Shown: positions 13,265-53,388, counted from the first letter of the stretch. The stretch: DNA of 54,154 nucleotides from Victivallaceae bacterium (GCA_045605205.1 JAZUPO010000229.1:1-54154), one strand, 5' to 3'. Translations and numbers: made by a program. The notes: generated by a model from the letters alone, not told the origin.

Positions 13265-13265
13265 C

Positions 13266-15098
13266 TCAACAAAGGATCGCCCAGACGATCATAGCAATAA
13301 GAGCTATGGTCATAATCAATACATACATATGAAGATATCCCGACTGGAACTTGTGGACCCGGTCAGATATCCCGGCAAAAAACTTGAACAGGGGAGCCCA
13401 GAAAAAACGTTCAGAGCCGTCAGGAGCGTTCCATTCAAAGGAGGCTTTTTCCGGGAAAAGTCCTTTGGGGGGCTCCACTTTGCGGCGGATCCGCAAAAAG
13501 CCGTTGAACAAATCGGCAAGAGCCTGTACCACAGCACTGCCGGTATACTCCATTCTGGCTGTAGGTTTGGCATAGCCGCAATCCCAAGTGGGACCGGAAA
13601 GATTTTCTCTTCCCCGTACCAAAACGTATCTCCGCCAGAAAAAACCCCAGGCACACAAAGCGTAAAACACCGCAGAAAAAATTGCAGCCAGCCACAGGAT
13701 ATCCACAACTTTTCTGCCGACGGGAAGACCTTTCAACAGAAATTCCCCTGCCAACGGTGCAGCAAAAACACTCAAAACAGCAAAACTCAGCAGAACGATC
13801 ATCGGCACATACATCCAGGGGGATTCTTTACCGCACTCTGAGATCTGCCGGGGTTCCCCGAGAAAAGTTCCGCCCACAGCCTTGGCAAAAGCAACCACGG
13901 CACAGGCACCGGTAAGACTGAGCACAAGTGCACAGAGGATCCCCGCCCCGCGGAGCATCATCGAATTTGAACAGATCCCGGCAAAAGCAGCAAGATATAT
14001 CATCAATTCCCCGATGAAGCCGTTAAAAGGCGGAAGTCCGGAAATCCCCAGAGAGGCCAGGGTGAAACAACTTCCGGTAACCGGTGTCTTTTTCATCATT
14101 CCGCCCATTTTATCAATGGAAAGAGTCCCCCTTGAACAATACACCTGCCCTGCCCCCAAAAACAACGTCCCCTTAAGCAGAGCGTGATTGATGATATGCA
14201 ATACAAATCCCAATCCGGCAAAAACAACCATTTCTGTGTGTTGATTGTGAGCTGCAAGAAACACACTCCCGAGAGCGATGGAAATGATCCCCATATTCTC
14301 AATACTGCTGTATGCAAGAAGCCGCTTCAAATTGTCCTGAGCAAAAGCAAAGACGATCCCCCCGAGACTTCCGATGCAGCCGAGGATCAGCAGCGTCCAT
14401 CCGAAAAATGCAAAAGGCGACTGAAGCAATGCCGCTTCAGGAAATACAAAATTCAAGATCCCCCAGAAACCGAGATTGATCATCGCTCCCGACATAATGG
14501 CCGACACGGGAGCAGGAGCCGCCGGATGAGCTTCAGGCAGCCAGAGATGAAGCAGAGGGAATCCGGCTTTCAATCCGAAGCCGGCCATTCCGATGGCGAT
14601 AAGCAGATATCCGGGAACTCCCGCCTTATGGGCAAGTGCCCAAAAGAGCATCAGCAGCACTCCTCCGGCTTCACAGGCAAGCAGATAGATCCAAGCCACC
14701 CGTTTAAGTTCTTCAGCTTTGTAATTGAACATCACCAGCACAAAACTGAAAATCCCCATAAGCTCCCAGACGATCAGAAAAGGAACAAACTCTGAGATCA
14801 AAGGCAAAGCCAGCATCGTCGCCACAGTCAAATTAAAAAATCCCCAGTAGATCCCGGGATTACCGTGCCCCTTGATGTATGCAAGTGAATGAAAGGCAGC
14901 AGCAGGAGCCAATATAAGAGTCGGCAGCATAAAGAGAGCCGCCAAGCCCGGCTGCGAGATACATATACCGGCCAGTCCGGTGACGGCGGCAATAAGTGTT
15001 CCGGCAATTCCCACCGCTCCGGCAAGATTGCCCCACCGGCAACAAAGCAAAGCCAACACACCGGCGATGGCTGCTGTGCCTGCACTCCAATAAATCAT
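13266..15098 (-). CDS. NuoL/HyfB/HycC-like antiporter-type membrane subunit
   Basis: A 610-aa polytopic protein with GFPLLHLWLPEAHPAAP and LAYSSIENMG motifs. It is the first gene of the operon and has a GGAGGT RBS. Confidence 0.85.
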   Translation of the reverse strand: MIYWSAGTAAIAGVLALLCCRWGNLAGAVGIAGTLIAAVTGLAGICISQPGLAALFMLPTLILAPAAAFHSLAYIKGHGNPGIYWGFFNLTVATMLALPLISEFVPFLIVWELMGIFSFVLVMFNYKAEELKRVAWIYLLACEAGGVLLMLFWALAHKAGVPGYLLIAIGMAGFGLKAGFPLLHLWLPEAHPAAPAPVSAIMSGAMINLGFWGILNFVFPEAALLQSPFAFFGWTLLILGCIGSLGGIVFAFAQDNLKRLLAYSSIENMGIISIALGSVFLAAHNQHTEMVVFAGLGFVLHIINHALLKGTLFLGAGQVYCSRGTLSIDKMGGMMKKTPVTGSCFTLASLGISGLPPFNGFIGELMIYLAAFAGICSNSMMLRGAGILCALVLSLTGACAVVAFAKAVGGTFLGEPRQISECGKESPWMYVPMIVLLSFAVLSVFAAPLAGEFLLKGLPVGRKVVDILWLAAIFSAVFYALCAWGFFWRRYVLVRGRENLSGPTWDCGYAKPTARMEYTGSAVVQALADLFNGFLRIRRKVEPPKGLFPEKASFEWNAPDGSERFFWAPLFKFFAGISDRVHKFQSGYLHMYVLIMTIALIAMIVWAILC

Positions 15099-36410: not shown

Positions 36411-37292
36411 TCACTCCCGGCATATAAAAACGGCTCCGATGATCAAACACATTCCAATTCCGGCAGCAAGGGTCATATTCTCCTGAAAGCACACACACCC
36501 GACCGCAGTTCCGACTGCCGGTTCGATTGTTGCAGCAATGGCAGCCGTTGAGGGGGCAAGTCTTTTCAATCCGGCAGTGTAGGCATAGTAAGGCAATATG
36601 GTCACGATCAATACAAGTCCTGCCAGCAAGCTCCAAAGCTGCCAATTGCCGTTTCGGGCGATATGCAGTGTATTTTCCCAATCCAATATAAAAGTTCCGG
36701 CACATCCGGCAAAAATAAATGTCCACAAAGTGATTGCCGCATTGCTGTAATTTCTGATCTGGGCATAACGGCTGAATATGGTAAAAAGAGCGTAAAAAAA
36801 GGCTGCCCCAACGCCCATAAGCAGCACTTTGGGCGAAAGAACTCCTCCTGAAGAAAACACACCGCTCACAAATACACACCCGGCAATCACAGAAAGCAAG
36901 GCCAGAATTTTTCGCAAAGAAAGTTTCTCTTTGAAACAGATGACCGACATAACCATTACAAATGCCGGAGACGTATAGAGCAAAACGACAGCTGTATTGA
37001 CCGTGGTGTATTTGATTGCAGAAAAATAACAGATATTGAAAAATATGATGCTTACGATTCCGCATCCGGCCATACACCACACGTTCCGGAGTTTCAATTT
37101 GAACGCCTCCCGGCAGAATAAGGCAAAAGAACTCCCCAGTATCAATGCCGCTCCCAATGCCCGTAAAGCAGCAATATCCACCGGACGGAATCCCACACTG
37201 ATCAGGTTGCGGACAAACAATCCCATAGATCCCCAACAGATACCGGCGATCAGGACAAAAAATATGCCAACGCGGAAGTCCTTATTTTTCAT
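36411..37292 (-). CDS. EamA/DMT-family membrane transporter
   Basis: A 293-aa, 10-TM protein with duplicated EamA-type halves. The overlapping 36310..37236 ORF in another frame is Cys/Arg-rich and was rejected. Confidence 0.75.
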   Translation of the reverse strand: MKNKDFRVGIFFVLIAGICWGSMGLFVRNLISVGFRPVDIAALRALGAALILGSSFALFCREAFKLKLRNVWCMAGCGIVSIIFFNICYFSAIKYTTVNTAVVLLYTSPAFVMVMSVICFKEKLSLRKILALLSVIAGCVFVSGVFSSGGVLSPKVLLMGVGAAFFYALFTIFSRYAQIRNYSNAAITLWTFIFAGCAGTFILDWENTLHIARNGNWQLWSLLAGLVLIVTILPYYAYTAGLKRLAPSTAAIAATIEPAVGTAVGCVCFQENMTLAAGIGMCLIIGAVFICRE

Positions 37293-37342
37293 ATTCCACA
37301 GTATCCTGCCAGGTATAAAAATCTGTTGAAAGATTTTTGAGG

Positions 37343-38872
37343 TCAGTCGATTTTTTCTCTTGATTTTTCAAAAATGTCAATGACCTCTTTTTCAGGCCTC
37401 TTGTCAGCAAGAGAAACGATGACCGCCGCCAGCAGCCCTGCCGCAAAACCGGGAATGATCTCATAAAGAGAAGTCCACGCCATAAAAACATACCAGAGAC
37501 CATCAACCAGAAATCCGGTAAGAATTCCTGCGAAAGCCCCCCAGTAAGTCAGACGTTTCCAAAAGAGTGCCAAAAGCATCACAGGTCCGAAAGCGGCTCC
37601 GAAGGCTCCCCAGGCACAGGAAACAAGCCCCATAATTCCTTTGCAATCCGGGCTTGAAGCAATCAGAAAAGCCACAATAGAGATAAACACCACAATAAAA
37701 CGTCCGGCCCGGAGCATTTCATTGTCAGAAGCTTTTTTACGCAGCAGAGGCTTGTACAAGTCAGATGCAAAGGCCGAAGAAGAAGCAAGGAGTTGGGAAT
37801 CTGCCGTGCTCATTGCCGCAGCAAGAATGGCTGACAACATAATTCCTGCAAAAAAGCTCCAGACAGCCACCATACCCACATTCTGTCCGATCCAGTCAGC
37901 AACGCTTCTGATCATATTGATAAAGACCAGAGTATTGGCATCTTTGGCAATTGTCAACGCATCCCCCAGATAGGATCTGCCGATCAAACCGACAGCACTG
38001 GAAGCAAGGATGATCAAGATAAACCAGGAACAGCCGATGATCTGGGACTTACGCATCTCTTTTTCATCCTTGACGGCAATATACCGGATGAGGATATGGG
38101 GCATTCCGAAATATCCGAGCCCCCAACCGAGGCCGGTGAGGATATCGCTGATACTTTTCCAGTTCCAGCTGCCGCCTGACAGCCAGTTCCAATAATGAGC
38201 GGGAATCACGCCCTGAGGTGCCGTAAATGTTGGAAGTGCCATAATTCCGGCACAGCACAGAGGAATCAGCATAAGAGCTCCCAGCATCAGCATCCCCTGA
38301 AAGAAGTCTGTCCAGCAGACAGCATTGAATCCACCGAGAAAAGTATAGATCACAATGACCACAGTTGCTGCGATCATTGCCGTTTTCGGCTCGATCCCCA
38401 GCACCGTATTGGCAAGGGTTCCGCAAACATAAAGGCTTGATGCAGAATAGACACAATAGGTAATCACAAAGACAATGGCCGAAAGCACCATAATCTCCTT
38501 ACGGTTGGAACAGAAACGCCTGGTCAGAAATTGAGGGATCGTAATAGAATCCCCCGCTGCAATGGAATACCGCCGCAGCACCGGAGCCACAAGAAGCCAC
38601 GCACAGAAAGTCCCCAGCGTCAACCCCACAGCGATCCAAAGCTGCCCCATACCGTACATATAGATAGCCCCCGGCAATCCCATAAGCACCCAGGCACTCA
38701 TATCAGAAGCTCCGGCAGACAATGCGGACACCCAGCCATTCATCTCGCGGCCGCCCAGAAAATAAGATTTCTCTCCACCGGTACTTTTGCGTTCTTTAAC
38801 AAAGAAATAAATTCCGATATACAAAACAAGCATCAAATAGACCAGCAAAGCTGCAAGTTCGGGTATTTTCAT
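37343..38872 (-). CDS. putP: Sodium:proline symporter (SSS family)
   Basis: YFLGGREMNGWVSALSAGASDMSAWVLMGLPGAIY matches the PutP signature, and the protein has 13 TM helices. Confidence 0.85.
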   Translation of the reverse strand: MKIPELAALLVYLMLVLYIGIYFFVKERKSTGGEKSYFLGGREMNGWVSALSAGASDMSAWVLMGLPGAIYMYGMGQLWIAVGLTLGTFCAWLLVAPVLRRYSIAAGDSITIPQFLTRRFCSNRKEIMVLSAIVFVITYCVYSASSLYVCGTLANTVLGIEPKTAMIAATVVIVIYTFLGGFNAVCWTDFFQGMLMLGALMLIPLCCAGIMALPTFTAPQGVIPAHYWNWLSGGSWNWKSISDILTGLGWGLGYFGMPHILIRYIAVKDEKEMRKSQIIGCSWFILIILASSAVGLIGRSYLGDALTIAKDANTLVFINMIRSVADWIGQNVGMVAVWSFFAGIMLSAILAAAMSTADSQLLASSSAFASDLYKPLLRKKASDNEMLRAGRFIVVFISIVAFLIASSPDCKGIMGLVSCAWGAFGAAFGPVMLLALFWKRLTYWGAFAGILTGFLVDGLWYVFMAWTSLYEIIPGFAAGLLAAVIVSLADKRPEKEVIDIFEKSREKID

Positions 38873-38907
38873 AAAAAAAGCTCCTTTTTAGAAATAAAAA
38901 TCTTATT

Positions 38908-38936
38908 AATATAGCACAATATCAATTGTTTTTCAA
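38908..38936 (-). promoter_or_regulatory. Putative promoter of putP (TTGAAA-17-TGcTATATT)
   Basis: Minus-strand hexamers with an extended -10, between the DUF1559 terminator and the putP ATG. Confidence 0.45.
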
Positions 38937-38958
38937 CCTTATAGAAATACAAAGAAAC

Positions 38959-38984
38959 AAAAAAGGGCTCTCCGCAGAGAGCCC
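38959..38984 (-). terminator. Rho-independent terminator after the DUF1559 gene
   Basis: The stem is GGGCTCTC / GAGAGCCC with a 4-nt loop, followed by a T6 run on the minus strand. Confidence 0.6.
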
Positions 38985-39002
38985 GGGAAGAAGCTGTTTT
39001 TA

Positions 39003-41989: not shown

Positions 41990-42217
41990 ATGGATGAATC
42001 TATGAATATTGATGAAATGAAAGCGGAATTTCTTTCATTTTGCATTGAGGCATATAAGACAAAACTCGGCGTTTCCGGAGCAAAAGTTGCAGAATACTTT
42101 GACGAAACCGGCACACTTGATTTCCTTTTGGAAAACTACGATTTGCTGCATACTCTGGGAAAAGAACAGCTTCTTGCGGAAATTGAACGATTTTTAAGTA
42201 AACGGGTGAACAAATGA
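41990..42217 (+). CDS. DUF3791-family small protein (putative antitoxin/partner)
   Basis: A 75-aa protein. The pattern F..FCIEAYK.....SG..V.EYF...G.LDFL..NYD.LHT.G...L..EIE is as in DUF3791 (from memory). It has a GAGGTG RBS, the promoter at 41937-41965, and overlaps the next gene by 4 nt. Confidence 0.7.
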
Positions 42218-42708
42218 AATTGTATCACGGCAGCCATATTGAGGTAAAAAATCCCAAGATCATCACTTCATCCAGAGTGGGGGATTTCGGGCGCGGATTT
42301 TATACGACCAGCAGTTTGGAGCAAGCCCGCCGCTGGGCGCAGATCCGGGCAAGGCAGGAAGAAGTTTCAGCCGGTATCGTTACAGTATTTGATGTGCCTG
42401 AACATCTTTTCACACATCCGGAACTGCAGATCAGGAACTTCGTAAAAGCCGATGATACCTGGCTGGACTTTGTTTTAGCCAACCGTAAAGATGTTGACTT
42501 TGACCACGAATTTGATCTTGTCTGCGGACCTGTTGCCAATGACCGGGTGTATATCTGCTTGAATATGCTTGAAGACGGTTTAGCTGACAGAGCAACTGTT
42601 ATTGCAAAACTGAAAACGTATGTACTTGCAGATCAGATTTTATTCCACACTGCCAAATCACTGTTGTTTCTGGAATATGCTTCAACGGAGGAAGTGCTAT
42701 GCAAGTAA
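42214..42708 (+). CDS. DUF3990-family protein (possible ADP-ribosyltransferase-fold toxin)
   Basis: A 164-aa protein starting MKLYHGS, followed by GRGFYTTSS and the C-terminal DQILFHT. This H / Y-x-S / Q-E-like arrangement is reminiscent of H-Y-E ART folds. Confidence 0.7.
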
Positions 42709-43091
42709 CGCAAGAAAACCTTTATAACCTCATTCCACCGAAAGCTGCAAAGATCACCACCATACTGCGCAACGCACGCAGCATAGCAGTAAAACAGGCA
42801 TTGCTGACCTTTTACAAATCCAAAGCATACAGATTGCTGGAAAATGAAGAAACCAAACTGTGGCACTCAAGTCCCGCCCAGATTTATGCGGAATACCTCT
42901 CCGCCCCCCAACGTTCACGGAAGAGCTATCAGAACGGTCCCGGCCGCAGTAAACTTGTGCCTTTCGCCGAACAAATCAAACTCTGGCAAGCCCAAGGAAT
43001 GACACTCCGGGAAATCGCCGCCGAATTGCAGCACTACGGCTGCCAAACCACCGCCCAGAATCTCTCACTTTTTCTGCGTAAGAAAAAGTAA
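42699..43091 (+). CDS. DUF3791-like N-domain fused to a C-terminal helix-turn-helix
   Basis: A 130-aa protein. [29 protein letters not shown] resembles second-type DUF3791 proteins. The C-terminal [31 protein letters not shown] is a resolvase/IS-type HTH. It overlaps the DUF3990 gene by 10 nt. Confidence 0.6.
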
Positions 43092-43108: not shown

Positions 43109-46100
43109 TTATCCGGCGATTGACGGATAGCGGTTGTAAACGTGCTCGTAGATCAGACCGGTGTACTGGTTGATGCTTTGATCATCGTAGCTTTGAGGCA
43201 GAGAAACGAACAACGAGTCGCGGATAAGATTACTGACGGCAGATCGAGTATCTTCTTTGTCCCGCCAATGGTCGAGTTCGGCTATTTTTTCTTTGACTTT
43301 GGCAAGAAGTTCAATGGAAATCTCTTTGATTTTTTTGATATCCTTGGCAGAAAGGGAGTCTTTGAAAAGCAAATCGTAGACAGAAAGCTCTTCATCGCTG
43401 GTAAAACCTTCACGGACATATCGGCGCTGCTCTGAATCAAGCTCACTGCTCAATTTCATCAAATCCATAAATGTTTTTTCTATCTTGGCTTTATCCTGTT
43501 CGCCGTTGTAGCTTTCAATGATTTCCTGATATTTTGTGTAGTAATCGATCCGTTTGGGATTGGTCGGCAGCATTGTAGAAAGCCGCTGTTCAATGAGTTC
43601 TTCGAGATCTTTCAGAAGCAGGAATTTCTTCCGTGTCTTCGCAAACTCTTTCTGCAGTAATTCAAAGTCTATCTGGCTGATATCGAAAGAACGGGGCGTA
43701 TTCCGGTCGGCAGATTCAGTGGAAACATATTCATTGACGATTCCGTGAATTTGAACCATCAGTTCCGTATTATCTGCATTTTTCCGCTTTTTCTGAAGTT
43801 CGTTAAAAATTCCATTGACAGCATCTTTTTCCTGACGCATGGAAGGAGTAATATCATTTCGGTCTAAATATTTCCACAGCCTGAAAAGTTCACTTGCCGA
43901 TGTTTGGAACTCTTTTTTGATCTCCAAAGTTTTGCATAATTCATTTGCCGCCTGCTGCAGCAAGGCGATACGTTCAAAACCGGAGGAAGCAATCAGGGCA
44001 TCCAGAGAAAAGTTGTTCTTCTGCAGGAATGTTTTGGTTGTACTTATGATTTCCTGAATTCTATGAATAAGCTCTTCTTTGTTCACCGTCGGATCAGTTC
44101 CATTGCCGTGGCCCTCTTGGGACGTATATGCAGCCAACGCTTCACGCAGAGCCTTGACAATACCGATGTAGTCAAGGATGAGCCCGTTTGTTTTCCCTTC
44201 TGCCACACGATTTGCCCGAGCGATAGTTTGCATAAGAGTGTGGGCTTTGAGAGGTTTATCCAGATAGAGGCATGAGAGAGATTTTACATCAAATCCGGTC
44301 AGCCACATAGCACAGACAAAGACCACGCGGAAAGGATTTTGGGAATCTTTGAATTCCTTATCCAGTTCCCGGGTTTCCATTTTCGTGCGGTGTGGACGGA
44401 TATCCAATCCCCAGGCGTCAAAAGTTTTGATTTCATTTTGTTCCTGACTGATGACAACAGCCATTTCGGTTTCTTTCATCCAGTTGAGCTTACGGGAAAG
44501 CTCTTGAGCTGTTTGCTGTGAAGTTTCTTTTTTGAGCTGCTGTTCAAGTTCAGAAATTTTAAGCTGCCAGTATTTTTGAACGAGATTATACATCCTGACA
44601 CAGGAAATTTTGTTCAAGCAGACATACATAGCCTTGCCGCAAGTCCACAAGTCAGAATAGTGTTCAACAAAATCCTGAGCCAGCGCCTCAAAGCGTGATT
44701 CAGCAGTCAGCAAATGGATTTCCTTTGCGAACTCCCGTTCCAGCTTTTCCTGCTGATTGGGATCTAGATCGGCGGCTTCAACAGCTTCGATAATGCGTTC
44801 AGTAATTTCGGGACTTGTGATATCCTTGAATTTCTGACCTCTGTTTTCGTAGTAAAGAGGAACGGTTGCGCCGTCATCAACAGCCCGTTTGAAGTCGTAG
44901 ATGGAAACGTAGCCGCCAAAGGTCCTTTCGGTAATGTTATCATTAGAAAGGAGAGGTGTCCCGGTAAATCCGATACGGGAGGCTGTGGGCAGTAAAGAAC
45001 ACATATTGTCGGCAAAGATACCATTTTGACTGCGGTGAGCCTCATCTGACATAATGATAATATCGTGATCAGGAATGATCGGAGTTGGATTCCCTTGATT
45101 GAATTTCTGAATCAGAGTAAAAATAAAGCTGGGATTGCCTTTAAGTTTGTTGATCAGGTCAGAGCCGCTGGAGGCAATAAAATGAGACCCCTTGACGGCT
45201 CCGAGAATACCGCAGTTTTCAAAGGTGTCGCTGATCTGTGAATTAAGCTCATCACGGTCAGTCAGAATAACAATGGTCGGAGAGCCTTCAAACTTGCGGC
45301 GGATCTTTTGAGCGAGAAAGAGCATGGAGTAACTCTTTCCGCTGCCTTGGGTATGCCAGAAAACGCCCAGTTTGCCCTCTTTGAGTTTTCTGTTTTTGTA
45401 GGCTTCGATGGCTTCATTGACACCGAGATACTGATGGTTGCGGGCAAGGATTTTGGCAGTACGACCGCCTGAATGATCGAAGAGGATAAAGTTTTCGAGC
45501 AGATCAATAAAGGTCTCTTTTTTGCAGATCCCCCGGAGCATGGTCTGCAATTCCACGCAGCCGGGATCCTGTTCTTTAAGACGTTTCCATTCGTGGAAGA
45601 ATTCGTATTTACTGCCGAGGGTTCCGACTTTTGCGTGATGTCCGTTACTCAGGATGAGAAACGCGTTGTAATAGAAGAGCTGCGGAATGGTCGCCAGATA
45701 GTCGGTATAATTGTTGGTATAGGCATCTTGCACATCCACATTAACGGCTTTGAATTCCATAAACAAAAGCGGGATACCGTTGACAAAGCCCACAATATCC
45801 GTCCGGCGGCGGTGGAGAGTACCTTGGATTTTAAGTTCTTTAATGGCGAGAAAATGGTTATTGAGTGGAGTCTGAAAATCAATGAGTTTGGCGGTGCGGG
45901 TGGAAAATTTGCCATTGGGAAGTTTGACGGAAACAGGGATGCCGTCACGGATGAGGAAATATTTTTCCTCATTGATCTGCATAAGGGAGGCAGAAGCAAG
46001 ATGAGTTTCGAGTTTCTTTTGGGCTTCATCGATCTGAGCCGGAGTAATCCAGGGATTGAACTCTTTGATTTTAAGACGGAAATATCGGGAAAGCAAGATT

Positions 46101-46246
46101 TCTCGATAACTTTTGCGTCCGAAAGTGCCATCGATACCAAGTTTTTCGGTGTTGTAGGCAAACTTGACCTCCCAACCCAACTCATTCTGGAGCAGATTTC
46201 CCGCACTTTCCTGCACCAGAATATTTTCAGAATACTCGTAACTCAT
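43109..46246 (-). CDS. hsdR: Type I restriction endonuclease subunit R
   Basis: A 1045-aa protein with an HsdR N-terminal nuclease region, SF2 helicase motifs (HTQGSGKS, MSDEAHRSQ, TGTPL, QTIARANR) and a DUF3387-like C-terminus. Confidence 0.95.
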   Translation of the reverse strand: MSYEYSENILVQESAGNLLQNELGWEVKFAYNTEKLGIDGTFGRKSYREILLSRYFRLKIKEFNPWITPAQIDEAQKKLETHLASASLMQINEEKYFLIRDGIPVSVKLPNGKFSTRTAKLIDFQTPLNNHFLAIKELKIQGTLHRRRTDIVGFVNGIPLLFMEFKAVNVDVQDAYTNNYTDYLATIPQLFYYNAFLILSNGHHAKVGTLGSKYEFFHEWKRLKEQDPGCVELQTMLRGICKKETFIDLLENFILFDHSGGRTAKILARNHQYLGVNEAIEAYKNRKLKEGKLGVFWHTQGSGKSYSMLFLAQKIRRKFEGSPTIVILTDRDELNSQISDTFENCGILGAVKGSHFIASSGSDLINKLKGNPSFIFTLIQKFNQGNPTPIIPDHDIIIMSDEAHRSQNGIFADNMCSLLPTASRIGFTGTPLLSNDNITERTFGGYVSIYDFKRAVDDGATVPLYYENRGQKFKDITSPEITERIIEAVEAADLDPNQQEKLEREFAKEIHLLTAESRFEALAQDFVEHYSDLWTCGKAMYVCLNKISCVRMYNLVQKYWQLKISELEQQLKKETSQQTAQELSRKLNWMKETEMAVVISQEQNEIKTFDAWGLDIRPHRTKMETRELDKEFKDSQNPFRVVFVCAMWLTGFDVKSLSCLYLDKPLKAHTLMQTIARANRVAEGKTNGLILDYIGIVKALREALAAYTSQEGHGNGTDPTVNKEELIHRIQEIISTTKTFLQKNNFSLDALIASSGFERIALLQQAANELCKTLEIKKEFQTSASELFRLWKYLDRNDITPSMRQEKDAVNGIFNELQKKRKNADNTELMVQIHGIVNEYVSTESADRNTPRSFDISQIDFELLQKEFAKTRKKFLLLKDLEELIEQRLSTMLPTNPKRIDYYTKYQEIIESYNGEQDKAKIEKTFMDLMKLSSELDSEQRRYVREGFTSDEELSVYDLLFKDSLSAKDIKKIKEISIELLAKVKEKIAELDHWRDKEDTRSAVSNLIRDSLFVSLPQSYDDQSINQYTGLIYEHVYNRYPSIAG
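46224..46246 (-). repeat. 23-nt direct repeat, copy A (functional hsdR 5' end, ATGAGTTACGAGTATTCTGAAAA)
   Basis: Identical at 22 of 23 positions to 47165-47187. Confidence 0.9.
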
Positions 46247-46264
46247 CTGTATTTCTCCACGTTA

Positions 46265-47152
46265 TCAAATCTCATCGGTATCGCTCTCATAATAGTAAGA
46301 GTAGTCGATGCCTTTCATAAACATTTCCCGGTCATTAATTTTATCGGTCAGAGCGACTTTCAGTAAAGTTTTCAAATCGGTACTGTTAATCACACTCTTC
46401 TGCATGGCTTCAAGATAAGCCTTTTTATTGACCAGACTCCAGTCAATACATTGTTTCAAAGAACGCTTGAGCATCAAGTCCAGCCAGATACGGGTGGAGC
46501 GTCCGTTACCTTCCATAAAGGGGTGAGCGACATTCATTTCCACATATTTGTTGATGATCTCTTCAAAAGAAGATTCCGGCATATTCTCGATATTGGGAAA
46601 AATCGTAGAAAAGTAAAGAGCATTGGCAAAGGTGAAACCGCCTTTACTGATATTTTTATCCCGGATTTGTCCGGCGAATTCATACAAGCCGCCGAAAAGA
46701 TAAGCGTGGATCTGCTGCAGACATTTTACCGTGCCGGGTTCCATAGAAGAGAGAAGACCGCTTTCAAAGAGAGCATAGGCTTTGGTACGGCTTTTGCCGT
46801 CGATGGTATCATCGCTGTAAGTGAACCATTTTATAAATTTAGCGGCATGACGGCTGGGGATATGCTCAATCAAAATGAGAATATCCTGTTGGGTAAGACA
46901 ATCAGTCAGATAGCGTTTCCCGTCAGAAGCAGTCATTTTCAGTTGACTACAATTTGTAGTCAACTCGGGGTTGGTCTTTTTCAGGCGTGATTTGAGAACG
47001 CTCCAATATTTCCGCGGATTAACGCTTTCGGTCAAAACGCCGACAATATCGGCAACCGAGAACAGCCATTGATTAGCTGAATCATCCCACGCTGCCCGAA
47101 CTTCCCGATCATTAAAAAAACGGATGGAAATTTTATTGCTCATCAATTTCAA
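46265..47152 (-). CDS. Bro-N-like DNA-binding domain fused to a Fic/DOC (Fido) domain
   Basis: The Fic motif is [12 protein letters not shown]. The N-terminal [31 protein letters not shown]...AAKFIKWF fits the Bro-N pattern. The start is TTG 47152 (TTGA overlap with the relic mini-ORF stop) or ATG 47143. Confidence 0.85.
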
Positions 47153-47164
47153 CCTTGTTTTAAT

Positions 47165-47187
47165 TTTTCAGAATACTCGTAAGTCAT
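47165..47187 (-). repeat. 23-nt direct repeat, copy B (relic hsdR 5' end, ATGACTTACGAGTATTCTGAAAA)
   Basis: Its ATG overlaps the stop of the unknown 243-aa gene (ATGA). It opens a 12-codon mini-[15 protein letters not shown], whose TGA overlaps the TTG start of the Fic gene. Confidence 0.9.
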
Positions 47188-47912
47188 AATTCATCATCCC
47201 GCAATTTGCAAATATTTTTTGTCATCATAATTTTACGCAACTTTGTTCCTAAATCAGTATATGCATAGTATGAATTGACTTTACGGGGTATGGGGATTTT
47301 TTTAGAAACCATACGCGTAGGTTCTGTTATGAAGCGATTTTTCGCTTGGTTATCCTCCGTAATTATACCAAGTCCCTCTAATCTCAACAATGGCTCAATT
47401 CCATCACTTCGCCCCTCGTATACTACAAATAAGTTTTCTGCATACATCAAATAAGTAATATCATCCGGAAGTAGTCTATCTATAATTTCTGCATATGTAG
47501 AGAACACCTGCCAATCAATATACTCAAACAAATATGCGAGGTATAATTTCGCTAACATTCTTGGTTTGTTGTAATCAAGATAGCGATCAATTAAAATCAT
47601 AATGTACTCAAGTTGTTGTTTTTGAAATTTTTCATTCTGTTGGAATTTCTCCGCATACAAGTTGCGATTATTTTCATCAAGAGAACATTTATTTAACTCA
47701 TCTAAAAAACATATTAATTTTTTTAAGTTGTGTCGCTCTTTAATGCTTTTTCCAATGCGATATATGGAAATCGCAGAAGATATAAACGGTATATCTTTTA
47801 AAATACCATCTTCAAGTAACGCATCAATTCCCAACTCCGCCGCATTAGATATGATACTTTCAAATTCTGGTGACAAACTGTCTTTTAATGACTTAGATAA
47901 ATCATTTGCCAT
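47184..47912 (-). CDS. Uncharacterised 242/243-aa protein embedded in the Type I R-M operon (no family recognised)
   Basis: The ORF starts at ATG 47912 (TGATG overlap with the hsdS stop, GGAGG 8-9 nt upstream) or at GTG 47915. GC is about 30%. It looks like a helical N-half plus a mixed C-half, with no TM helix and no catalytic motif recognised. Confidence 0.75.
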   Translation of the reverse strand: MANDLSKSLKDSLSPEFESIISNAAELGIDALLEDGILKDIPFISSAISIYRIGKSIKERHNLKKLICFLDELNKCSLDENNRNLYAEKFQQNEKFQKQQLEYIMILIDRYLDYNKPRMLAKLYLAYLFEYIDWQVFSTYAEIIDRLLPDDITYLMYAENLFVVYEGRSDGIEPLLRLEGLGIITEDNQAKNRFITEPTRMVSKKIPIPRKVNSYYAYTDLGTKLRKIMMTKNICKLRDDEL

Positions 47913-49114
47913 CACTTCACCTCCAATTCGCCGGTCATCAGCTTGGGCAATAAATTATCACGAGCCTCTTGTGTTGCATTGATACATTGTTGGGAATCAT
48001 ATATTTTTTTGAAAATGGGAGCTGTCAATTTTGAAAATGCAGATATTAAATCTGTATCTGGTAAAATAAACGGCATAGCTTTTATGATAGATGAGTTTAC
48101 TGCTTTTGAAATTGATGATGTATTACCCAATGTGTCGTACTCAAAGTTTTTAAGATATAAATATGTGTATTCCCGCATCCACTCTTCATCAATGTAAAAA
48201 TGGGCGATGGCTTCGTTTGTACAACACGGAGTTGTTGCTATAGAAACTCGTCCGAGAGTTAATTTAAAACTCAACAAAATAGTCCCGACAGGTACTTTTT
48301 TTACATTGTATTTATTTATTGAATCTGCAGTCAGACCTTCAGTAGTGAAAAAAACATAAGCGCCACTATTGCCCATATCAGAAATGGATACCCATGGGAT
48401 ACCATTATTACCATCCGTGAAACATTGGCTTTCTGAACGAGGAGGTGTTTTGCCAATGGTAATATTGAAAAAATCTATTGCTTTCCCTGTTCGCCATCCA
48501 TCGGGGATGCCGTTGACGATGGGGGTGGTTTCGTGGCCGGGGAAGCGGAGGTCGATGAACCATTCTTTATAGAGCCGCTGGGCGGCTTCTTCCAGAAGCT
48601 TGATCTGTTTCCGGTTGTTTTCAATCAAATCATCATACGCCGAAAGCATATCTGCGATTTTTTGCTGAACCTCAAGCGGCGGAAGATTGTCTACATTCAT
48701 TTCACGAATTGTCGGAAGGTTTACATGAGCCACTGTTGCTCCATTGGCGGTACCAAGCAATTTGTATTGCTGCTCCGAAGCAAGCAGATAGTAAACCAAG
48801 TAGTCCGGACAAACTTTTTCCGGATTAGGGCGAATCAAAACAGTTCTTTGCCCTAAACACATTTTTTCATTGTTTTTTATAATTGCAGCATTTCCAGCAG
48901 GTGCTTCCCGAGCAAAAATTATATCATCATTTTGCGGGATAGCTCGCGCACATCGGGCTTGATACACCTTTTCAGAAACTCGATGTACCCCTTCCAAGTT
49001 AAAACGCCCCAAGCCAATATTGGGGGTTCTGATGAGTGGAATTCCGCTTCCCTCATCCGGAGCCGTTGAGTGGGGGCAGTCAACAATAAAATGACAAATA
49101 TCTTGTAATTTCAT
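47912..49114 (-). CDS. hsdS: Type I restriction-modification specificity subunit S
   Basis: It has two target-recognition domains separated by the conserved helix LPPLEVQQKIADMLSAYDDLIENNRKQIKLLEEAAQRLYKEWF. The C-terminal conserved helix is ...QEARDNLLPKLMTGELEV. Confidence 0.92.
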   Translation of the reverse strand: MKLQDICHFIVDCPHSTAPDEGSGIPLIRTPNIGLGRFNLEGVHRVSEKVYQARCARAIPQNDDIIFAREAPAGNAAIIKNNEKMCLGQRTVLIRPNPEKVCPDYLVYYLLASEQQYKLLGTANGATVAHVNLPTIREMNVDNLPPLEVQQKIADMLSAYDDLIENNRKQIKLLEEAAQRLYKEWFIDLRFPGHETTPIVNGIPDGWRTGKAIDFFNITIGKTPPRSESQCFTDGNNGIPWVSISDMGNSGAYVFFTTEGLTADSINKYNVKKVPVGTILLSFKLTLGRVSIATTPCCTNEAIAHFYIDEEWMREYTYLYLKNFEYDTLGNTSSISKAVNSSIIKAMPFILPDTDLISAFSKLTAPIFKKIYDSQQCINATQEARDNLLPKLMTGELEVK

Positions 49115-49138
49115 TTGTTCACCTCGCGAGCTGTTTTT

Positions 49139-49167
49139 ATAAGTCTTATATGGCTCATAAGTCTTAT
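49139..49167. repeat. Two copies of the 11-bp palindrome ATAAGTCTTAT, 18 nt apart, in the four-helix-bundle/hsdS intergenic region
   Basis: The copies lie at 49139-49149 and 49157-49167. Related copies, ATAGGTCTTAT at 49470-49480 and ATAGGACTTAT at 49488-49498, lie inside the four-helix-bundle gene with the same 18-nt phasing. Confidence 0.8.
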
Positions 49168-49181
49168 TTTTACTGCCTCTC

Positions 49182-49850
49182 TCATTGTTTCCCGCCTTTC
49201 AGCAGATTTGCCGCTTCTTCGATTTTTTTAAGCAATGATTCATTGCCGTATTGAGAAACTTCCCGGTAGATTTCCCGGAGGAGTGATAAGACCTTTTCCT
49301 GTTTTGCATTACGGCTGCCTACTCTTGCATTATACATTCTTTCCCGCAAGCCGCCTTTTTCAGCGAAACTCTCTGCTAATGATTTCAGTTGCCGGTCAAG
49401 CAGATAATTGGTCTGGTGGATCAGCGAAATCATCGTGTTGCAGAAAAGCTCGGCATTGTCGGGGGCTAAATAGGTCTTATAAGTCTCATAGGACTTATTT
49501 TTTTGTTTTGCCAACTCTCTGATTTGCACGATCCGCTGATCGTTTTTATCCCACAAAGGCAACCTGTGTACTCGCAAATGATCCCGGTAATCTTCCAGCA
49601 ATTCCTCAAGACTCGCCCGGGCAACACCGATCAGTTTGATTTCGGTTTCACAACTGATCCCGGAGGCGGAACAACCTTCAATAATATTCTGTTTGCCGCT
49701 TCGTGCCGCCTGTATCATCTGATCAATAGTCCGATCACCTTTTTGCAAGTACCACTGACAAAAATTATTGGTGGCATCAAATATAACCACACTGTTCTGA
49801 TAAGACTCCAGTTCCTGATAATTGCCGTGGCTCTGGATAATTTCATTCAT
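49182..49850 (-). CDS. Four-helix-bundle protein (23S rRNA intervening-sequence-protein family) with C-terminal suffix domain
   Basis: A 222-aa protein. The pattern Y....V.IFD.T..F........RT.DQM.QAARSGKQNI.EG and its location between hsdM and hsdS fit the TIGR02436-type family (from memory). It overlaps hsdM by ATGA. Confidence 0.6.
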   Translation of the reverse strand: MNEIIQSHGNYQELESYQNSVVIFDATNNFCQWYLQKGDRTIDQMIQAARSGKQNIIEGCSASGISCETEIKLIGVARASLEELLEDYRDHLRVHRLPLWDKNDQRIVQIRELAKQKNKSYETYKTYLAPDNAELFCNTMISLIHQTNYLLDRQLKSLAESFAEKGGLRERMYNARVGSRNAKQEKVLSLLREIYREVSQYGNESLLKKIEEAANLLKGGKQ

Positions 49851-51850
49851 ATCCCCAGCTCCTTGAAGTTGGCAGAGATTTGCGCCATCAGCTCATTGGA
49901 TTGCTGTTGCAAGGTCAGCAGTTCAGCGTGGATTTCGTGCATTCTTTCGGAGAAATCCACTCCGTCATCTTTCGCTTCGGCAACTCCGACGTATGCTCCC
50001 GGAGTCAGGGACCAGTTTTTTCCTTCAACTTCGGTGCTATCCGCAATTTTACACAAACCGGGAATATCGGCATACTTGCCTTCAGTACCAAATTTGCCGG
50101 TCAGCCAGTTGGCCTCCTGCAAAATGGTGATATAGGCATTAATAAATTCTGCAGCCGCTTCGCCTCTTTGTTCCAAAGCCTTATTGAAAGCATTCAGGCG
50201 GTTGAAACCTGCATCTTTCAGTTTGTCTTTCTGTGTCGCCGGGTTGTTGGCATAGTTTGCCAACAACCCCGCAGTACACTTTTTGTGAATTTCAGCAGCT
50301 GTTTTCAATGCTTCCATTAAGGCTTCAGACTTTACCAATGTTTCCGGTGTCATCGCCAGCAGATCTTTACAGAGATGATCGATTGCACAGTCAAAGTGTC
50401 CGATACGGTCAGCATCCAACAGCTGCCGATATTCTTTGACGGCTTCTTTTATTTCTTTGGCTCCATCGTGGAACGTTTTCAGATATTCAGAGATCAGATT
50501 CTGATATTTTTCCATTTCTCCACGGTACAGCCAGACAATGGCATTTAGATTTTTCAACTGCCATTCGCTCCATTCATTGAGGGTACGGTCAACTTCGGTG
50601 TAATAGCTCCGGGCATCAATGAAAAGAATTTTTTCTTGCAGAGCTTCTGCTTTCCCTTTGTCAAAGAACCACAGCGAACAGGGGAGACTTTTGGTATAAA
50701 AGAAGTTGTTGCCCACGCTGATCATCACATCAATATGTCCGGTCTTAACCAGCTGTTCTCGAATATCTTTATCTTTGCCTTGACTGTCCGTGGCACTTGA
50801 AGCCATAACAAATCCGGCTCGGCCAACCTCATTCAAATAGGCGTAGAAATAAGAGATCCACAAGTAATTGCCATTGCCCACCTCTTTTGCTTTATTTACA
50901 CCGGGCATTCCAAAAGGCAGCCGCCCGGCAGCTTCGGCTGATTCCGCTTTGACCTTATCCACATTGAAAGGCGGGTTGGCCATCACATAGTTACATTCGC
51001 CGACCAGATTGTGTGCATCGTGATAAAAGGTATTGGCTCCGTCTCCGGAAAGGATTTTTCCGTTCAACCCGTGAACTGCCATATTCATCAGGCACAGCTG
51101 GGCATTGTATTCCACCTTTTCCTGACCGTAAAAGGTCATAGTGTTGTTGGCGACCATACCGGAGTGATTGACAAAATCTCCCGTTTGCACAAACATTCCA
51201 CCCGATCCGCAGGCAGGATCAAGCAGAATGCCGGATTTGGGTTCCAGCACATTCACGATCATTTTAACCAGTGACTTGGGCGTAAAAAACACGCCGTCAT
51301 CAGACGCGATGTTCTTGGCAAACTTATTGAGAAAATATTCATAGATCCGGCCGAAGACATCTCCGCCGATCTCATCAAGAAGATTGTTGTTGAAAATCCG
51401 CAGCAGTTCCGCAAGCAGAGCATCTGAAAACATCGTGTACTCTTTGGGCAAAACACCTTGAAGCTGTTCACTCTGCTGTTCGATCAGCTCCATGGCATTA
51501 TTGACCGCCTCACCAAGACTGTTAATAGGCAGTCCATCCTGATTGATCAGCCCGGCCTCAGCGATATTCTCTGGCAGATTCACCAGATAGGGGTATTGGG
51601 CTTCTTCCGACAGAAACAATGCGCTCTTTTCTTTGAAATCACTAGCCTCCACAGGCAATACTCTGCCATTGCGAACAGGACGATGAGCAAGAATTTCTCT
51701 TTCAACCAGTTTGAAACGGCTGTAGGCGTAGCGCAAAAAGAGCAAGCCCAGAACAGGCATACAGTACTGGTTGGAGGTAAGTTTCGATTCTGCCCGGAGC
51801 AAATCTGCGGATTCCCAGAGGTCACTCTCAAGTTTTCGGATATTGATCAT
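49847..51850 (-). CDS. hsdM: Type I restriction-modification DNA methyltransferase subunit M (long form)
   Basis: The HsdM_N helix bundle (LWESADLLRA...VLGLLFLRY), the SAM motif LDPACGSGGM, the catalytic NPPF (VMANPPFN) and the C-terminal KNWSLTPGAYVG are present. Confidence 0.95.
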   Translation of the reverse strand: MINIRKLESDLWESADLLRAESKLTSNQYCMPVLGLLFLRYAYSRFKLVEREILAHRPVRNGRVLPVEASDFKEKSALFLSEEAQYPYLVNLPENIAEAGLINQDGLPINSLGEAVNNAMELIEQQSEQLQGVLPKEYTMFSDALLAELLRIFNNNLLDEIGGDVFGRIYEYFLNKFAKNIASDDGVFFTPKSLVKMIVNVLEPKSGILLDPACGSGGMFVQTGDFVNHSGMVANNTMTFYGQEKVEYNAQLCLMNMAVHGLNGKILSGDGANTFYHDAHNLVGECNYVMANPPFNVDKVKAESAEAAGRLPFGMPGVNKAKEVGNGNYLWISYFYAYLNEVGRAGFVMASSATDSQGKDKDIREQLVKTGHIDVMISVGNNFFYTKSLPCSLWFFDKGKAEALQEKILFIDARSYYTEVDRTLNEWSEWQLKNLNAIVWLYRGEMEKYQNLISEYLKTFHDGAKEIKEAVKEYRQLLDADRIGHFDCAIDHLCKDLLAMTPETLVKSEALMEALKTAAEIHKKCTAGLLANYANNPATQKDKLKDAGFNRLNAFNKALEQRGEAAAEFINAYITILQEANWLTGKFGTEGKYADIPGLCKIADSTEVEGKNWSLTPGAYVGVAEAKDDGVDFSERMHEIHAELLTLQQQSNELMAQISANFKELGI

Positions 51851-51886
51851 ATAAAACCTTTTTTCTCACATTTTTCATTTGAGGCT

Positions 51887-51914
51887 AATATAGCATTTAT
51901 TTCTCTTATTTCAA
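51887..51914 (-). promoter_or_regulatory. Putative promoter of the Type I R-M operon (TTGAAA-16-TGcTATATT)
   Basis: Minus-strand hexamers with an extended -10, about 37 nt upstream of the hsdM ATG. Confidence 0.45.
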
Positions 51915-52275: not shown

Positions 52276-52572
52276 ATGGAATGTCCAATGTGTGGCAAGA
52301 AAGCCTACGTCGTAACGCAAACCCGTGGTACGACAACGCTTCTCGGTGCAGGAGCCGGAGGTTACGCTGCTGCAGCAGGAGGTAAAACAGGAGCTGTGGT
52401 CGGCAGCTTCATCTGCCCCGGTTTCGGAACAGTGATCGGTGGTCTGCTCGGAGTGATCACAGGTGCTGCAACAGGAACAGTTGCAGGAAATACCATAGGC
52501 CGTATGATCGATGAAAACGTGATGCGTCTCTATCGTTGTGAAAGCTGCAACCACCAATGGAGGGCTGCCTGA
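52276..52572 (+). CDS. Split zinc-ribbon protein with an inserted glycine-zipper segment
   Basis: A 98-aa protein with CPMCG near the N-terminus and CESCNH near the C-terminus. These bracket GAGAGGYAAAAGGKTGAVVGSF..GFGTVIGGLLGVITGAATGTVAGNTIG, a GxxxG zipper. An AAAGGA RBS is present. Confidence 0.65.
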   Translation: MECPMCGKKAYVVTQTRGTTTLLGAGAGGYAAAAGGKTGAVVGSFICPGFGTVIGGLLGVITGAATGTVAGNTIGRMIDENVMRLYRCESCNHQWRAA

Positions 52573-52682
52573 TGGATCGCTGTCCTGACTGTAACTCTGA
52601 TCGTGTCATCCCCTGGAATGACGGTTATATCTGCTGCGACTGTGGTACGGAGTTTGATGAACCGGAATCACCAGAGTATTAA
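52572..52682 (+). CDS. 36-aa zinc-ribbon peptide
   Basis: Not in the ORF track. It encodes MDRCPDCNSDRVIPWNDGYICCDCGTEFDEPESPEY (CxxC...CxxC). Its ATG shares one base with the upstream TGA (TGATG). A weak terminator follows. Confidence 0.5.
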   Translation: MDRCPDCNSDRVIPWNDGYICCDCGTEFDEPESPEY

Positions 52683-52779: not shown

Positions 52780-53388
52780 ATGTCACTGAAATACCCTACA
52801 ACTTCTAAAACGCTTCTGGATAAAATCGCTTCCGGTGATGAAATCAGTTGGGATGAATTTTATCTGAAGTATGCCCCCATAGTGAAAGCTCTTGCCAAAT
52901 TCAAAGGCTTGGATGCCAATGCCGCAGATGATGTCTGTCAACAGGTTATGCTGCAGTTTTTCAAGCAGAGCAAAACTTTTAAGTTTGACCCCAATATTGC
53001 CAAGTTCAGAACCTACTTCGGCAGGATCGTTAATGCAAAAATCACGAATTATTACCGTAAAAGAGGAGAAGTCTCTTCCGATGAACCCGAAGAAATTCCT
53101 GTGGATTCTGAAGAAGGCAACCTCTTTATGAATGAATGGCGGAAAGCTGTGCTTAAAGAGGCTGAACAGGTGCTGAAACAGCGGGTTGCTCCTGAAACTT
53201 TTCAGGCTTATGAATTGTACGCCATTCAGAACCGCCCCGTCAAGAAAGTTGCTGAATATCTGGACTGTTCCGAAAATCAGGTTTATCAGGCAAAGAAGCG
53301 TTGTTTCAAGATGATGAAAGAAATCCTTTTGAAGATGAACGAGACTGATCCGGATTTGCAGTTGGAGTTGTCGAAATATGAGTTATAA
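52780..53388 (+). CDS. ECF-type sigma-70 family RNA polymerase sigma factor
   Basis: A region-2-like segment (DDVCQQVMLQFF...FRTYFGRIVNAKITNYYRKR) and a region-4 HTH (VKKVAEYLDCSENQVYQAKKRCFKMM) are present. An AAGGAG RBS is present. Confidence 0.8.
   Translation: MSLKYPTTSKTLLDKIASGDEISWDEFYLKYAPIVKALAKFKGLDANAADDVCQQVMLQFFKQSKTFKFDPNIAKFRTYFGRIVNAKITNYYRKRGEVSSDEPEEIPVDSEEGNLFMNEWRKAVLKEAEQVLKQRVAPETFQAYELYAIQNRPVKKVAEYLDCSENQVYQAKKRCFKMMKEILLKMNETDPDLQLELSKYEL

Follow-up and report, generated by a model that had tools for sequence, protein, structure and literature searches.

Several described systems bear on the locus analyzed here, an hsd operon at positions 43109-51914 of a 54,154-nt stretch of DNA from a Victivallaceae bacterium (GCA_045605205.1 JAZUPO010000229.1:1-54154; this whole stretch is called the window below). 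The first is the prr locus of E. coli (hsdM-hsdS-prrC-hsdR), in which the EcoprrI Type I restriction-modification (R-M) system holds inactive the embedded PrrC, an ABC-ATPase anticodon nuclease that is triggered by the T4 Stp peptide. This arrangement, in which an embedded toxin backs up a Type I R-M system as a further layer of defence, is described as a paradigm by Payne et al. (10.1101/2024.01.29.577857). The window operon likewise carries a latent toxin candidate between hsdS and hsdR in the same orientation. However, this candidate is a Fic protein without homology to PrrC, and no PADLOC match to PrrC or RloC is listed for any of the three accessory proteins of the operon; the resemblance is positional only.

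Next are the PDC families, which are defined by guilt-by-embedding, their genes being found within BREX, DISARM or Type I R-M loci (Payne et al. 2024, 10.1101/2024.01.29.577857), and R-M-embedded accessory genes now serve as a discovery route for new phage-defence systems. The original prediction for this locus had described the role of Fic and four-helix-bundle genes within hsd loci as not established; the embedding itself has already been described (Payne et al. 2024, 10.1101/2024.01.29.577857), with PrrC in EcoprrI as the classical example. PDC-S04, a candidate family only, comprises Fic proteins in BREX, DISARM and Type I R-M loci and has the same BroN-Fic architecture and embedding as the window protein, to which the window locus adds flanking repeats of the hsdR start and co-cargo. 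The rlo genes of Campylobacter jejuni (attributed to Miller et al. in 2005) are reportedly variable, unrelated open reading frames (ORFs) inserted among the hsd genes of a single Type I family; the organisms and gene families differ from those of the window. SoFic is a single-gene Fic defence for which abortive infection by AMPylation has been proposed (PMC12249575). The window Fic protein matches SoFic only marginally in PADLOC (E=0.0025), and the architecture of SoFic differs, with a separate small antitoxin, AS1.

The pattern of the window locus, in which defence candidates are embedded in a Type I R-M operon, is a known one, and two of the three accessory genes belong to catalogued families. 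The explanation favoured here, with moderate confidence, is that an intact-looking Type I R-M operon acts as a cargo platform and has received three independently acquired modules, which probably provide layered phage defence.

Organization of the operon and the Hsd subunits

Six minus-strand genes are packed into 43109-51850, in the order hsdM, four-helix-bundle+suffix, hsdS, orf243, BroN-Fic and hsdR. The features of the locus are as follows.

51887-51914, minus strand: promoter-like site (TTGAAA, 16-nt spacer, TATATT, upstream TG), 36 nt 5' of the hsdM ATG
49847-51850, minus strand: hsdM, 667 aa, Type I N6-adenine methyltransferase subunit
49182-49850, minus strand: four-helix-bundle + suffix-domain gene, 222 aa, cargo in the slot after hsdM
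49470-49502, minus strand: in-gene copy of a 9-nt tandem motif; the encoded peptide, KNKSYETYKTY, falls in the linker that precedes the suffix domain
49139-49171, minus strand: second copy of the 9-nt tandem motif, 3' of the four-helix-bundle stop, inside the 67-nt gap before hsdS
47912-49114, minus strand: hsdS, 400 aa, specificity subunit with two target-recognition domains
47184-47912 (or 47915), minus strand: orf243, 242 aa, first gene of the hsdS-hsdR slot
47149-47187, minus strand: relic mini-ORF (hsdR 5' end), 12 codons
46265-47143 (or 47152), minus strand: BroN-Fic, 292 aa from the ATG
46820-47143, minus strand: Bro-N-like N-terminal domain, BroN-Fic residues 1 to about 108
46265-46807, minus strand: predicted class III (NmFic-like) Fic AMP-transferase domain, matching NF046029
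43109-46246, minus strand: hsdR, 1045 aa, restriction/translocase subunit

All six ORFs of the original prediction are recovered at the same positions, and the tight packing described there is reproduced: hsdM and the four-helix-bundle gene share an ATGA overlap, 67 nt separate the latter from hsdS, the hsdS stop and the orf243 start overlap as TGATG, and 18 nt lie between BroN-Fic and hsdR. The orf243 start is placed at the ATG at 47912, which gives a product of 242 residues like the database copy P0001, and not at the upstream GTG. Because the homologues of BroN-Fic are 292 residues long, the ATG at 47143 (40-nt gap) is favoured as its start over the TTG at 47152, on which the previously proposed 31-nt gap rests.

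HsdM contains the Pfam domains HsdM_N and N6_Mtase (PADLOC MTase_I, E=1e-282), with the S-adenosylmethionine-binding motif DPACGSG at residue 211 and the catalytic motif NPPF at residue 292. HsdS matches Pfam Methylase_S in two stretches (PADLOC Specificity_I, E=1e-86), and HsdR comprises HSDR_N, SWI2_SNF2, ResIII and T1R_D3-like domains (TIGR00348, 480 bits), with GSGKS at 301, DEAH at 401 and a nuclease signature D150...EFK. All of the sequence features by which Type I R-M membership is judged are thus found in HsdM, HsdS and HsdR. Because the catalytic motifs of HsdM and HsdR are intact, the R-M system looks functional as far as its sequence can tell. HsdM is 84-85% identical to proteins of gut metagenome-assembled genomes of Victivallaceae/Lentisphaerae and 64-70% identical to those of many Bacillota, Bacteroidota, Actinomycetota and others. 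The latter level of identity across many phyla indicates that the R-M family has been widely transferred horizontally.

Interchangeable cargo in relatives of the R-M family

The operon was compared with 65 species-representative genomes that carry HsdM, HsdS and HsdR of this R-M family; L numbers below denote individual loci. The gap between hsdS and hsdR ranges from 15 nt to 5.1 kb in these loci, being at most 103 nt in 6, 212 nt in 1 and at least 586 nt, and thus occupied by cargo, in 58 of the 65. The gaps contain 115 ORFs that fall into about 50 sequence clusters, among which bSEFIR/TIR, PDC-S56, PDC-S20 (KAP NTPase), PDC-S19 (DUF3644) and several unannotated families are frequent, and PDC-S02 (DUF1016/YhcG) is found mostly in the slot after hsdM. 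Homologues of orf243 are present in three of the loci, BroN-Fic in one, and the four-helix-bundle gene in one (L012, the window being the second occurrence). As about 50 cargo clusters share the same slots, each of the three accessory genes is one of many interchangeable occupants. The proposal that a Type I R-M operon carries three accessory genes here is borne out, but a conserved six-gene unit is not, in that most relatives lack each gene.

The six genes recur together in a single relative, L012 (Lentisphaerae bacterium SIG96), in which a further ORF of 263 aa lies between hsdS and the four-helix-bundle gene. The downstream flank (DUF3791/DUF3990) is common to the window and L012, and the upstream flank differs. 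The nucleotide identity between the two loci is a mosaic: it is about 80% in hsdM and 62-85% in hsdR, but 91-100% in orf243 and in the 5' portion of Fic. The HsdS proteins are only 32% identical overall and have the central conserved region alone in common; the divergence outside this region indicates an exchange of recognition domains.

A different gene of about 260-280 codons follows hsdM in close Victivallaceae/Lentisphaerae relatives; its product has a conserved PHIVAFLDFLGA(S/T)EKM motif, matches phrog_23933 and shows no Pfam domain. This gene is located in L011 from about 2670 (as two tandem paralogues), in L013 from about 6230, in L014 from about 3820 and in L012 at 12734-13525.

Truncated hsdR starts record the accretion of cargo

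Of the 23 nt at 47165-47187, 22 are identical to the hsdR start (46224-46246), whereas 0 matches are expected in shuffled sequences, which supports the relic mini-ORF named in the original prediction. Direct repeats of 23 nt from the hsdR start consequently flank the Fic gene on both sides. The ATG of the relic overlaps the orf243 stop (ATGA), and 5 nt separate the TGA of the mini-ORF from the ATG of Fic. L012 has an identical relic, and in L174-L176 the relic is likewise located 5' of Fic, where it stands behind a DUF3644 gene instead of orf243. In gut metagenome reads, one contig has a different gene in front of the relic and Fic, and a loose contig end at 47165 belongs to a diverged copy of the same arrangement.

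All loci were searched for a second copy of their own hsdR start, with a rough chance expectation of about 2e-3 overall. Truncated hsdR starts of 50-75 nt or more are found in L006/7, L017, L097, L103 and L124/5/7, always 5' of additional cargo. The occurrence of such relics in at least six independent loci indicates that cargo accretes at the hsdR start. The simplest reading of these sequences is that any gene lying between a scar and the present hsdR arrived later. Fic would then have joined hsdR first as a [relic-Fic-hsdR] unit, and the genes now 5' of the relic differ between loci. A dedicated recombination mechanism may be at work, and the short upstream ORF may be kept for translational coupling. 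In four gut metagenome runs, no contig skips the 941 nt or the 331 nt that excision of Fic or of the suffix segment between repeats would remove. The recurrent truncated hsdR starts allow the order of acquisition to be read and suggest a recombination mechanism that can be tested.

A similar fragment is seen at a different gene in L160, where a 69-aa ORF (3526-3735) located 5' of a different, complete hsdS matches the N-terminus of the window HsdS, with one mismatch over about 22 visible residues (MKLQEICHFIVDCPHSTAPDEG versus MKLQDICHFIVDCPHSTAPDEG). By sequence comparison, this ORF is the relic of an hsdS start and a counterpart of the truncated hsdR starts.

The BroN-Fic protein

NmFic of Neisseria meningitidis (structures 2G03, 3S6A and 5CGL) AMPylates GyrB/ParE, and its inhibition is relieved by monomerisation and auto-AMPylation. 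The Fic domain of the window protein (residues 116-290) is approximately 65% identical to NmFic in 2G03 and 3S6A over the full length of 175 residues and matches the NCBIfam NmFic equivalog NF046029 with 274.7 bits (cutoff 230; profile positions 3-176 of 177). The active-site motif HxFx(D/E)GNGRxxR, claimed previously, is confirmed at residues 207-218 (46490-46525). In contrast, the earlier statement that no obvious inhibitory helix is present is not upheld, because SYYYES at residues 282-287 (46283-46300) aligns with the SYYYEG inhibitory helix (alpha-inh) of NmFic. Among 23 aligned BroN-Fic homologues that are 75-97% identical, GIDYSYYYE[ST] is nearly invariant (S and E in at least 90%), with S or T after the inhibitory Glu followed by an acidic tail at the C-terminus. 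The window protein thus shares the active-site motif and the C-terminal SYYYE helix with NmFic; it differs in an extra N-terminal Bro-N domain of about 110 residues, in S/T instead of G after the Glu, and in its R-M operon context.

Judged by these motifs, the window Fic is a class III, self-inhibited, NmFic-like protein. As a class III Fic with its own inhibitory helix, it would not need a separate antitoxin. A search for the canonical (S/T)xxxE(G/N) motif finds none in orf243 or in the mini-ORF. Either of these as a class I FicTA (VbhTA-type) antitoxin was considered and rejected, since both lack the canonical motif and the Fic protein has its own helix; the VbhT model scores 47 bits on the window Fic, against a cutoff of 800. 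The combination of a self-inhibited class III Fic with a phage-type Bro-N domain directs attention to the helix and to GyrB/ParE and away from a missing antitoxin.

The Bro-N domain of the window protein is recognized by Pfam at E=5e-5, just below the cutoff, and PF02498 is called in many homologues. The same domain heads PADLOC PDC-S13 (E=1e-37) and the phage family phrog_15286 (E=1e-32). The whole protein matches PADLOC PDLC04841 (PDC-S04) from residues 4-290 to profile positions 1-290 of 292 (E=5e-146); a full-length match to the hidden Markov model (HMM) is thereby combined with the embedding in Type I R-M that marks PDC-S04, the Fic gene lying between hsdS and hsdR. All BroN-Fic contexts retrieved are an R-M locus or an R-M remnant. 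The gene order is M-4HB-S-379aa-Fic-R in L160 (4HB, four-helix-bundle) and M-S-DUF3644-Fic-R in L174, BroN-Fic is located within an invertible hsdS region of a different R-M family (501-aa HsdM) in L178-L181, and it adjoins an hsdS fragment in L177. The suggestion that Fic and four-helix-bundle genes recur inside hsd loci is well founded, both being seen in further R-M loci (L160, L174 and others).

The hsdS region of L178-L181 is phase-variable, with a tyrosine recombinase, several hsdS copies, and SIR2 and DUF87 genes alongside, and is found in differing orientations between samples. In L177 (33-7888), BroN-Fic, the hsdS fragment and a 221-aa ORF of about the size of the four-helix-bundle gene are located directly 3' of gyrB and gyrA. 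This proximity is curious given the reported targeting of GyrB by NmFic-type toxins, and coincidence is possible. Other Fic genes are located directly 5' of hsdM in the same R-M family (L001-L005, 4545-6906; L015, 9335-9850; L016, 4082-4597; L006, 2029-2913). These genes encode NmFic-like proteins without Bro-N as well as HTH-Fic proteins (HTH, helix-turn-helix), and a T5orf172 gene adjoins in L001-L005. The region upstream of hsdM is therefore a third position at which Fic is associated with these operons.

The four-helix-bundle protein and its repeat motif

The product of the gene after hsdM matches NCBIfam TIGR04258 (79.8 bits, cutoff 40) and TIGR02436 (25.3 bits, cutoff 24), and its AlphaFold2 (AF2) model has a predicted local distance difference test score (pLDDT) of 87, with 2GSC and 2RLD as the best PDB matches (template-modelling score, TM, 0.72-0.73 normalised on the target). 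Both the HMM scores above cutoff and the four-helix-bundle fold place the protein in the TIGR04258/TIGR02436 family (PF05635, also called S23, with members named '23S rRNA intervening sequence protein'), of which Avd of diversity-generating retroelements (DGRs) is a relative. The predicted N-terminal bundle resembles the S23/intervening sequence (IVS) four-helix bundles; no retroelement or 23S rRNA context is seen at the window gene. The suffix half has no distinct structural match in the PDB fold search. The family has at least 8,000 matches, and a four-helix-bundle gene follows hsdM and overlaps its stop in at least three lineages with two HsdM types. Nothing relevant was found in the literature on a role of four-helix-bundle/IVS proteins in R-M loci.

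Copies of a TAAGACTTA-like 9-nt tandem motif at 49139-49171 and 49470-49502 form a direct repeat (D4), 85% identical and 331 nt apart, and the motif occurs nowhere else in the window, with 0 matches expected by chance. The same pair of a linker copy and a post-stop copy is present in L166 (2289-2330 and 2630-2671), L169 (6358 and 6680) and L173 (5607 and 5923). The motif encodes K-S/T-Y repeats, and its copies are 316-341 nt apart in lineages with different neighbours. The downstream copy is in frame with the start codon of the next gene, in the same register, in three of four independent lineages. The 9-nt motif might mark the edge of a cassette, serve in recombination or, as a TATAAG run, resemble a promoter, and its post-stop duplicate appears, as far as found, to be undescribed. 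A reading of the repeats as part of a DGR (Avd-type) was rejected: none of the six operon genes encodes a reverse transcriptase (the flanks were not specifically scanned), and the differences between the repeats are of mixed bases and not adenine-specific.

The orf243 family

The orf243 protein has no match in Pfam, NCBIfam, PADLOC or PHROGs. A word-indexed search returns 122 homologues, none with an informative name and a few with just the label 'hypothetical protein'. A profile search of 1.84 billion cluster representatives (clusters at 50% identity) returns 3,414 clusters with a threshold of E<=1e-3 and, with the stricter one of E<=1e-10, 2,226. No known domain for orf243 itself emerges from the profile search. 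The AF2 model (pLDDT 82; predicted TM score, pTM, 0.84) is mostly helical with a small C-terminal alpha/beta part. The fold search finds no PDB match with E<1, and BFVD yields just one unnamed viral protein. The family is thus large, has a confident predicted fold and is in none of the four libraries searched; the frequent location of its closer homologues between the hsdS and hsdR genes of one R-M family makes orf243 a plausible defence candidate.

Most homologues that are at least 38% identical are located in the hsdS-hsdR interval of this R-M family, as a rule directly beside hsdR. More distant relatives occur in contexts other than R-M, for example after an XRE-type regulator, and another group is found in a conserved Gram-positive neighbourhood. 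Two members of the family are fusions (P0459 and P0438): one joins an ADP-ribosyltransferase exoenzyme domain to the C-terminal two-thirds of orf243, and the other joins orf243 to tetratricopeptide (TPR) repeats and a class I methyltransferase. These fusions and contexts support a portable accessory module that is probably defence-related. A stand-alone defence or sensor module that prefers this HsdR family is the most likely identity of orf243.

In L110 (4200-9600), tandem units of an XRE-type HTH gene (about 100 aa) and a payload gene (about 232-240 aa) are arrayed, and the final payload gene is a homologue of orf243. The array is followed by HicA/HicB-like genes and an ORF of 404 aa that is a putative integrase. 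The region resembles a hotspot of defence or toxin-antitoxin genes carried by a mobile element.

Promoter and transcription

The site at 51914-51887 is the best minus-strand promoter match, but the scan gives a total of 19 sites against 18.4 expected by chance. As the site count equals the shuffle expectation, the site carries no statistical weight; the single promoter proposed previously is therefore plausible in position and is not backed by the scan. A scan of the window for terminator-like hairpins finds none in the intergenic gaps on the minus strand, and Rfam and tRNA scans of the window find nothing. Co-transcription and translational coupling of the six genes are most likely in view of the single orientation, the overlaps (ATGA, TGATG) and the gaps free of terminators. 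Among metatranscriptomes, only two runs contain about 6% of the sequence words.

Proposed explanation and alternatives

In the favoured explanation, an hsdM-hsdS-hsdR operon on the chromosome of a gut Victivallaceae/Lentisphaerota bacterium, belonging to an R-M family spread by horizontal transfer, would have received cargo in two slots. Slot 1 after hsdM would hold the four-helix-bundle+suffix gene, and slot 2 between hsdS and hsdR would hold orf243 followed by BroN-Fic. A cassette together with a complete hsdR start would join into the first 20-75 nt of the resident hsdR, and the old truncated start would stay as a scar. The six genes would be co-transcribed, with the cargo translationally coupled to the R-M genes and the relic mini-ORF bridging orf243 to Fic. 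The cargo would then add layers of phage defence behind restriction, as guilt-by-embedding and homology suggest. BroN-Fic may be a latent, self-inhibited AMP-transferase toxin that is switched on by a phage cue through Bro-N, or by disruption of an oligomer and auto-AMPylation of the SYYYE helix. By analogy with NmFic and VbhT, and with the Fic-based abortive infection proposed for SoFic (PMC12249575), the active Fic might AMPylate a GyrB/ParE-type target and stop DNA replication, which would lead to abortive infection in the manner of PrrC in EcoprrI. A defence role of the cargo can be inferred from its embedding and from the neighbouring cargo, which includes known systems. The general picture of embedded defence candidates is unchanged by this locus.

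Several observations weigh against this explanation. A member of PDC-S04 showed no measurable defence when deleted in its native host (10.1101/2024.12.20.629700). The four-helix-bundle family has a mean column identity of 72% and is also found beside housekeeping genes, and with this strong conservation and these contexts a non-defence or selfish role fits too. The inhibitory motif of the Fic protein ends in S/T, where the canonical motif has G/N, and the strict (S/T)xxxE(G/N) pattern fails there. The GyrB/ParE target is a putative one, carried over to the window Fic from NmFic and VbhT. The frame of the mini-ORF differs, with 12 codons in the window and 8 in L174 owing to a 1-nt difference, and any coupling role would therefore be independent of the peptide. 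Additionally, the metatranscriptome contigs on the operon come from relatives at 90-95% identity, are fragmentary, and do not cover orf243.

The alternatives differ in how closely the accessory genes are tied to the R-M enzyme and to each other. If the accessory proteins were regulatory or structural partners of the enzyme in an integrated six-component machine, the Fic protein might control restriction during establishment or DNA damage, through AMPylation of HsdR or HsdM or through an effect on gyrase. HsdR might then serve as a docking partner for orf243, and the assembly of HsdM and HsdS might be influenced by the four-helix-bundle protein. The tight overlaps and fixed gene positions would fit such a machine, as would the orf243 homologues lying mostly immediately 5' of an hsdR of this family, the four-helix-bundle genes overlapping the hsdM stop in three lineages, the BroN-Fic genes directly 5' of hsdR in L160 and L174, and the whole six-gene order kept in L012. 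It is nevertheless distinctly unlikely: most members of the R-M family lack each gene and have unrelated cargo in the same slots, the relics record addition one by one, BroN-Fic and four-helix-bundle genes also occur with other R-M families or with none, and distant orf243 relatives lie outside R-M loci. The relics also bear on whether orf243 and BroN-Fic travel as one two-gene module, for example as a sensor or antitoxin with its toxin. The 91-100% identity to L012 over orf243 and the 5' segment of Fic, against 62-85% in the flanking hsd genes, would be expected of such a module, NmFic-like genes are found together with homologues of orf243 in L001-L005 and L121, and the C-terminal part of orf243 is fused to an ADP-ribosyltransferase toxin domain in one member. 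However, the hsdR-start relic between orf243 and Fic marks a separate acquisition, the neighbour of BroN-Fic elsewhere is a 379-aa or a DUF3644 gene, Fic genes are absent from the vicinity of most orf243 homologues, and it is the Fic protein that has an inhibitory motif of its own, the canonical (S/T)xxxE(G/N) being absent from orf243. A joint module is accordingly very improbable.

The accessory genes could also be selfish hitch-hikers without benefit to host defence, for which the mobile R-M operon ensures expression and transfer and to which Fic adds stability of the locus. The four-helix-bundle+suffix genes, found in many unrelated contexts with a flanking repeat motif of their own, are consistent with this, as is the PDC-S04 member without a defence phenotype (10.1101/2024.12.20.629700), and a selfish benefit of embedding has been discussed (Payne et al., 10.1101/2024.01.29.577857). 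Such hitch-hiking is considered rather unlikely, however, because several cargo families in the same slots, including bSEFIR, are known or candidate defence systems, a class III Fic with its inhibitor in cis is unfit as a classical two-gene addiction module, and all three families are under strong purifying selection. A further possibility, viewed as quite improbable, is that the hsdR 5' end is an integron-like site of cassette capture, at which incoming defence genes would bring a replacement hsdR start and the old start would be kept as a short ORF that relays translation from the preceding gene. In that case orf243, with its new fold, its large family and its usual place beside hsdR, would act as a family-specific, PrrC-like guard of HsdR.

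Genes flanking the operon

Just 3' of hsdR and on the opposite strand, a DUF3791-DUF3990 pair with overlapping stop and start occupies 41990-42708 (plus strand) and is kept beside the operon in L012; a 130-aa ORF without a family match follows at 42699-43091. On the other side, 5' of hsdM, two overlapping small ORFs are located at 52276-52682 (plus strand), one of 98 aa with a glycine zipper and a zinc ribbon and one of 41 aa with a zinc ribbon, and an ECF-type (extracytoplasmic function) sigma factor gene follows them at 52780-53388. Elsewhere in the window, the plus-strand AT skew of 0.22-0.30 at about 3000-5000, 10000-15000 and 37000-39000 corresponds to long minus-strand ORFs.

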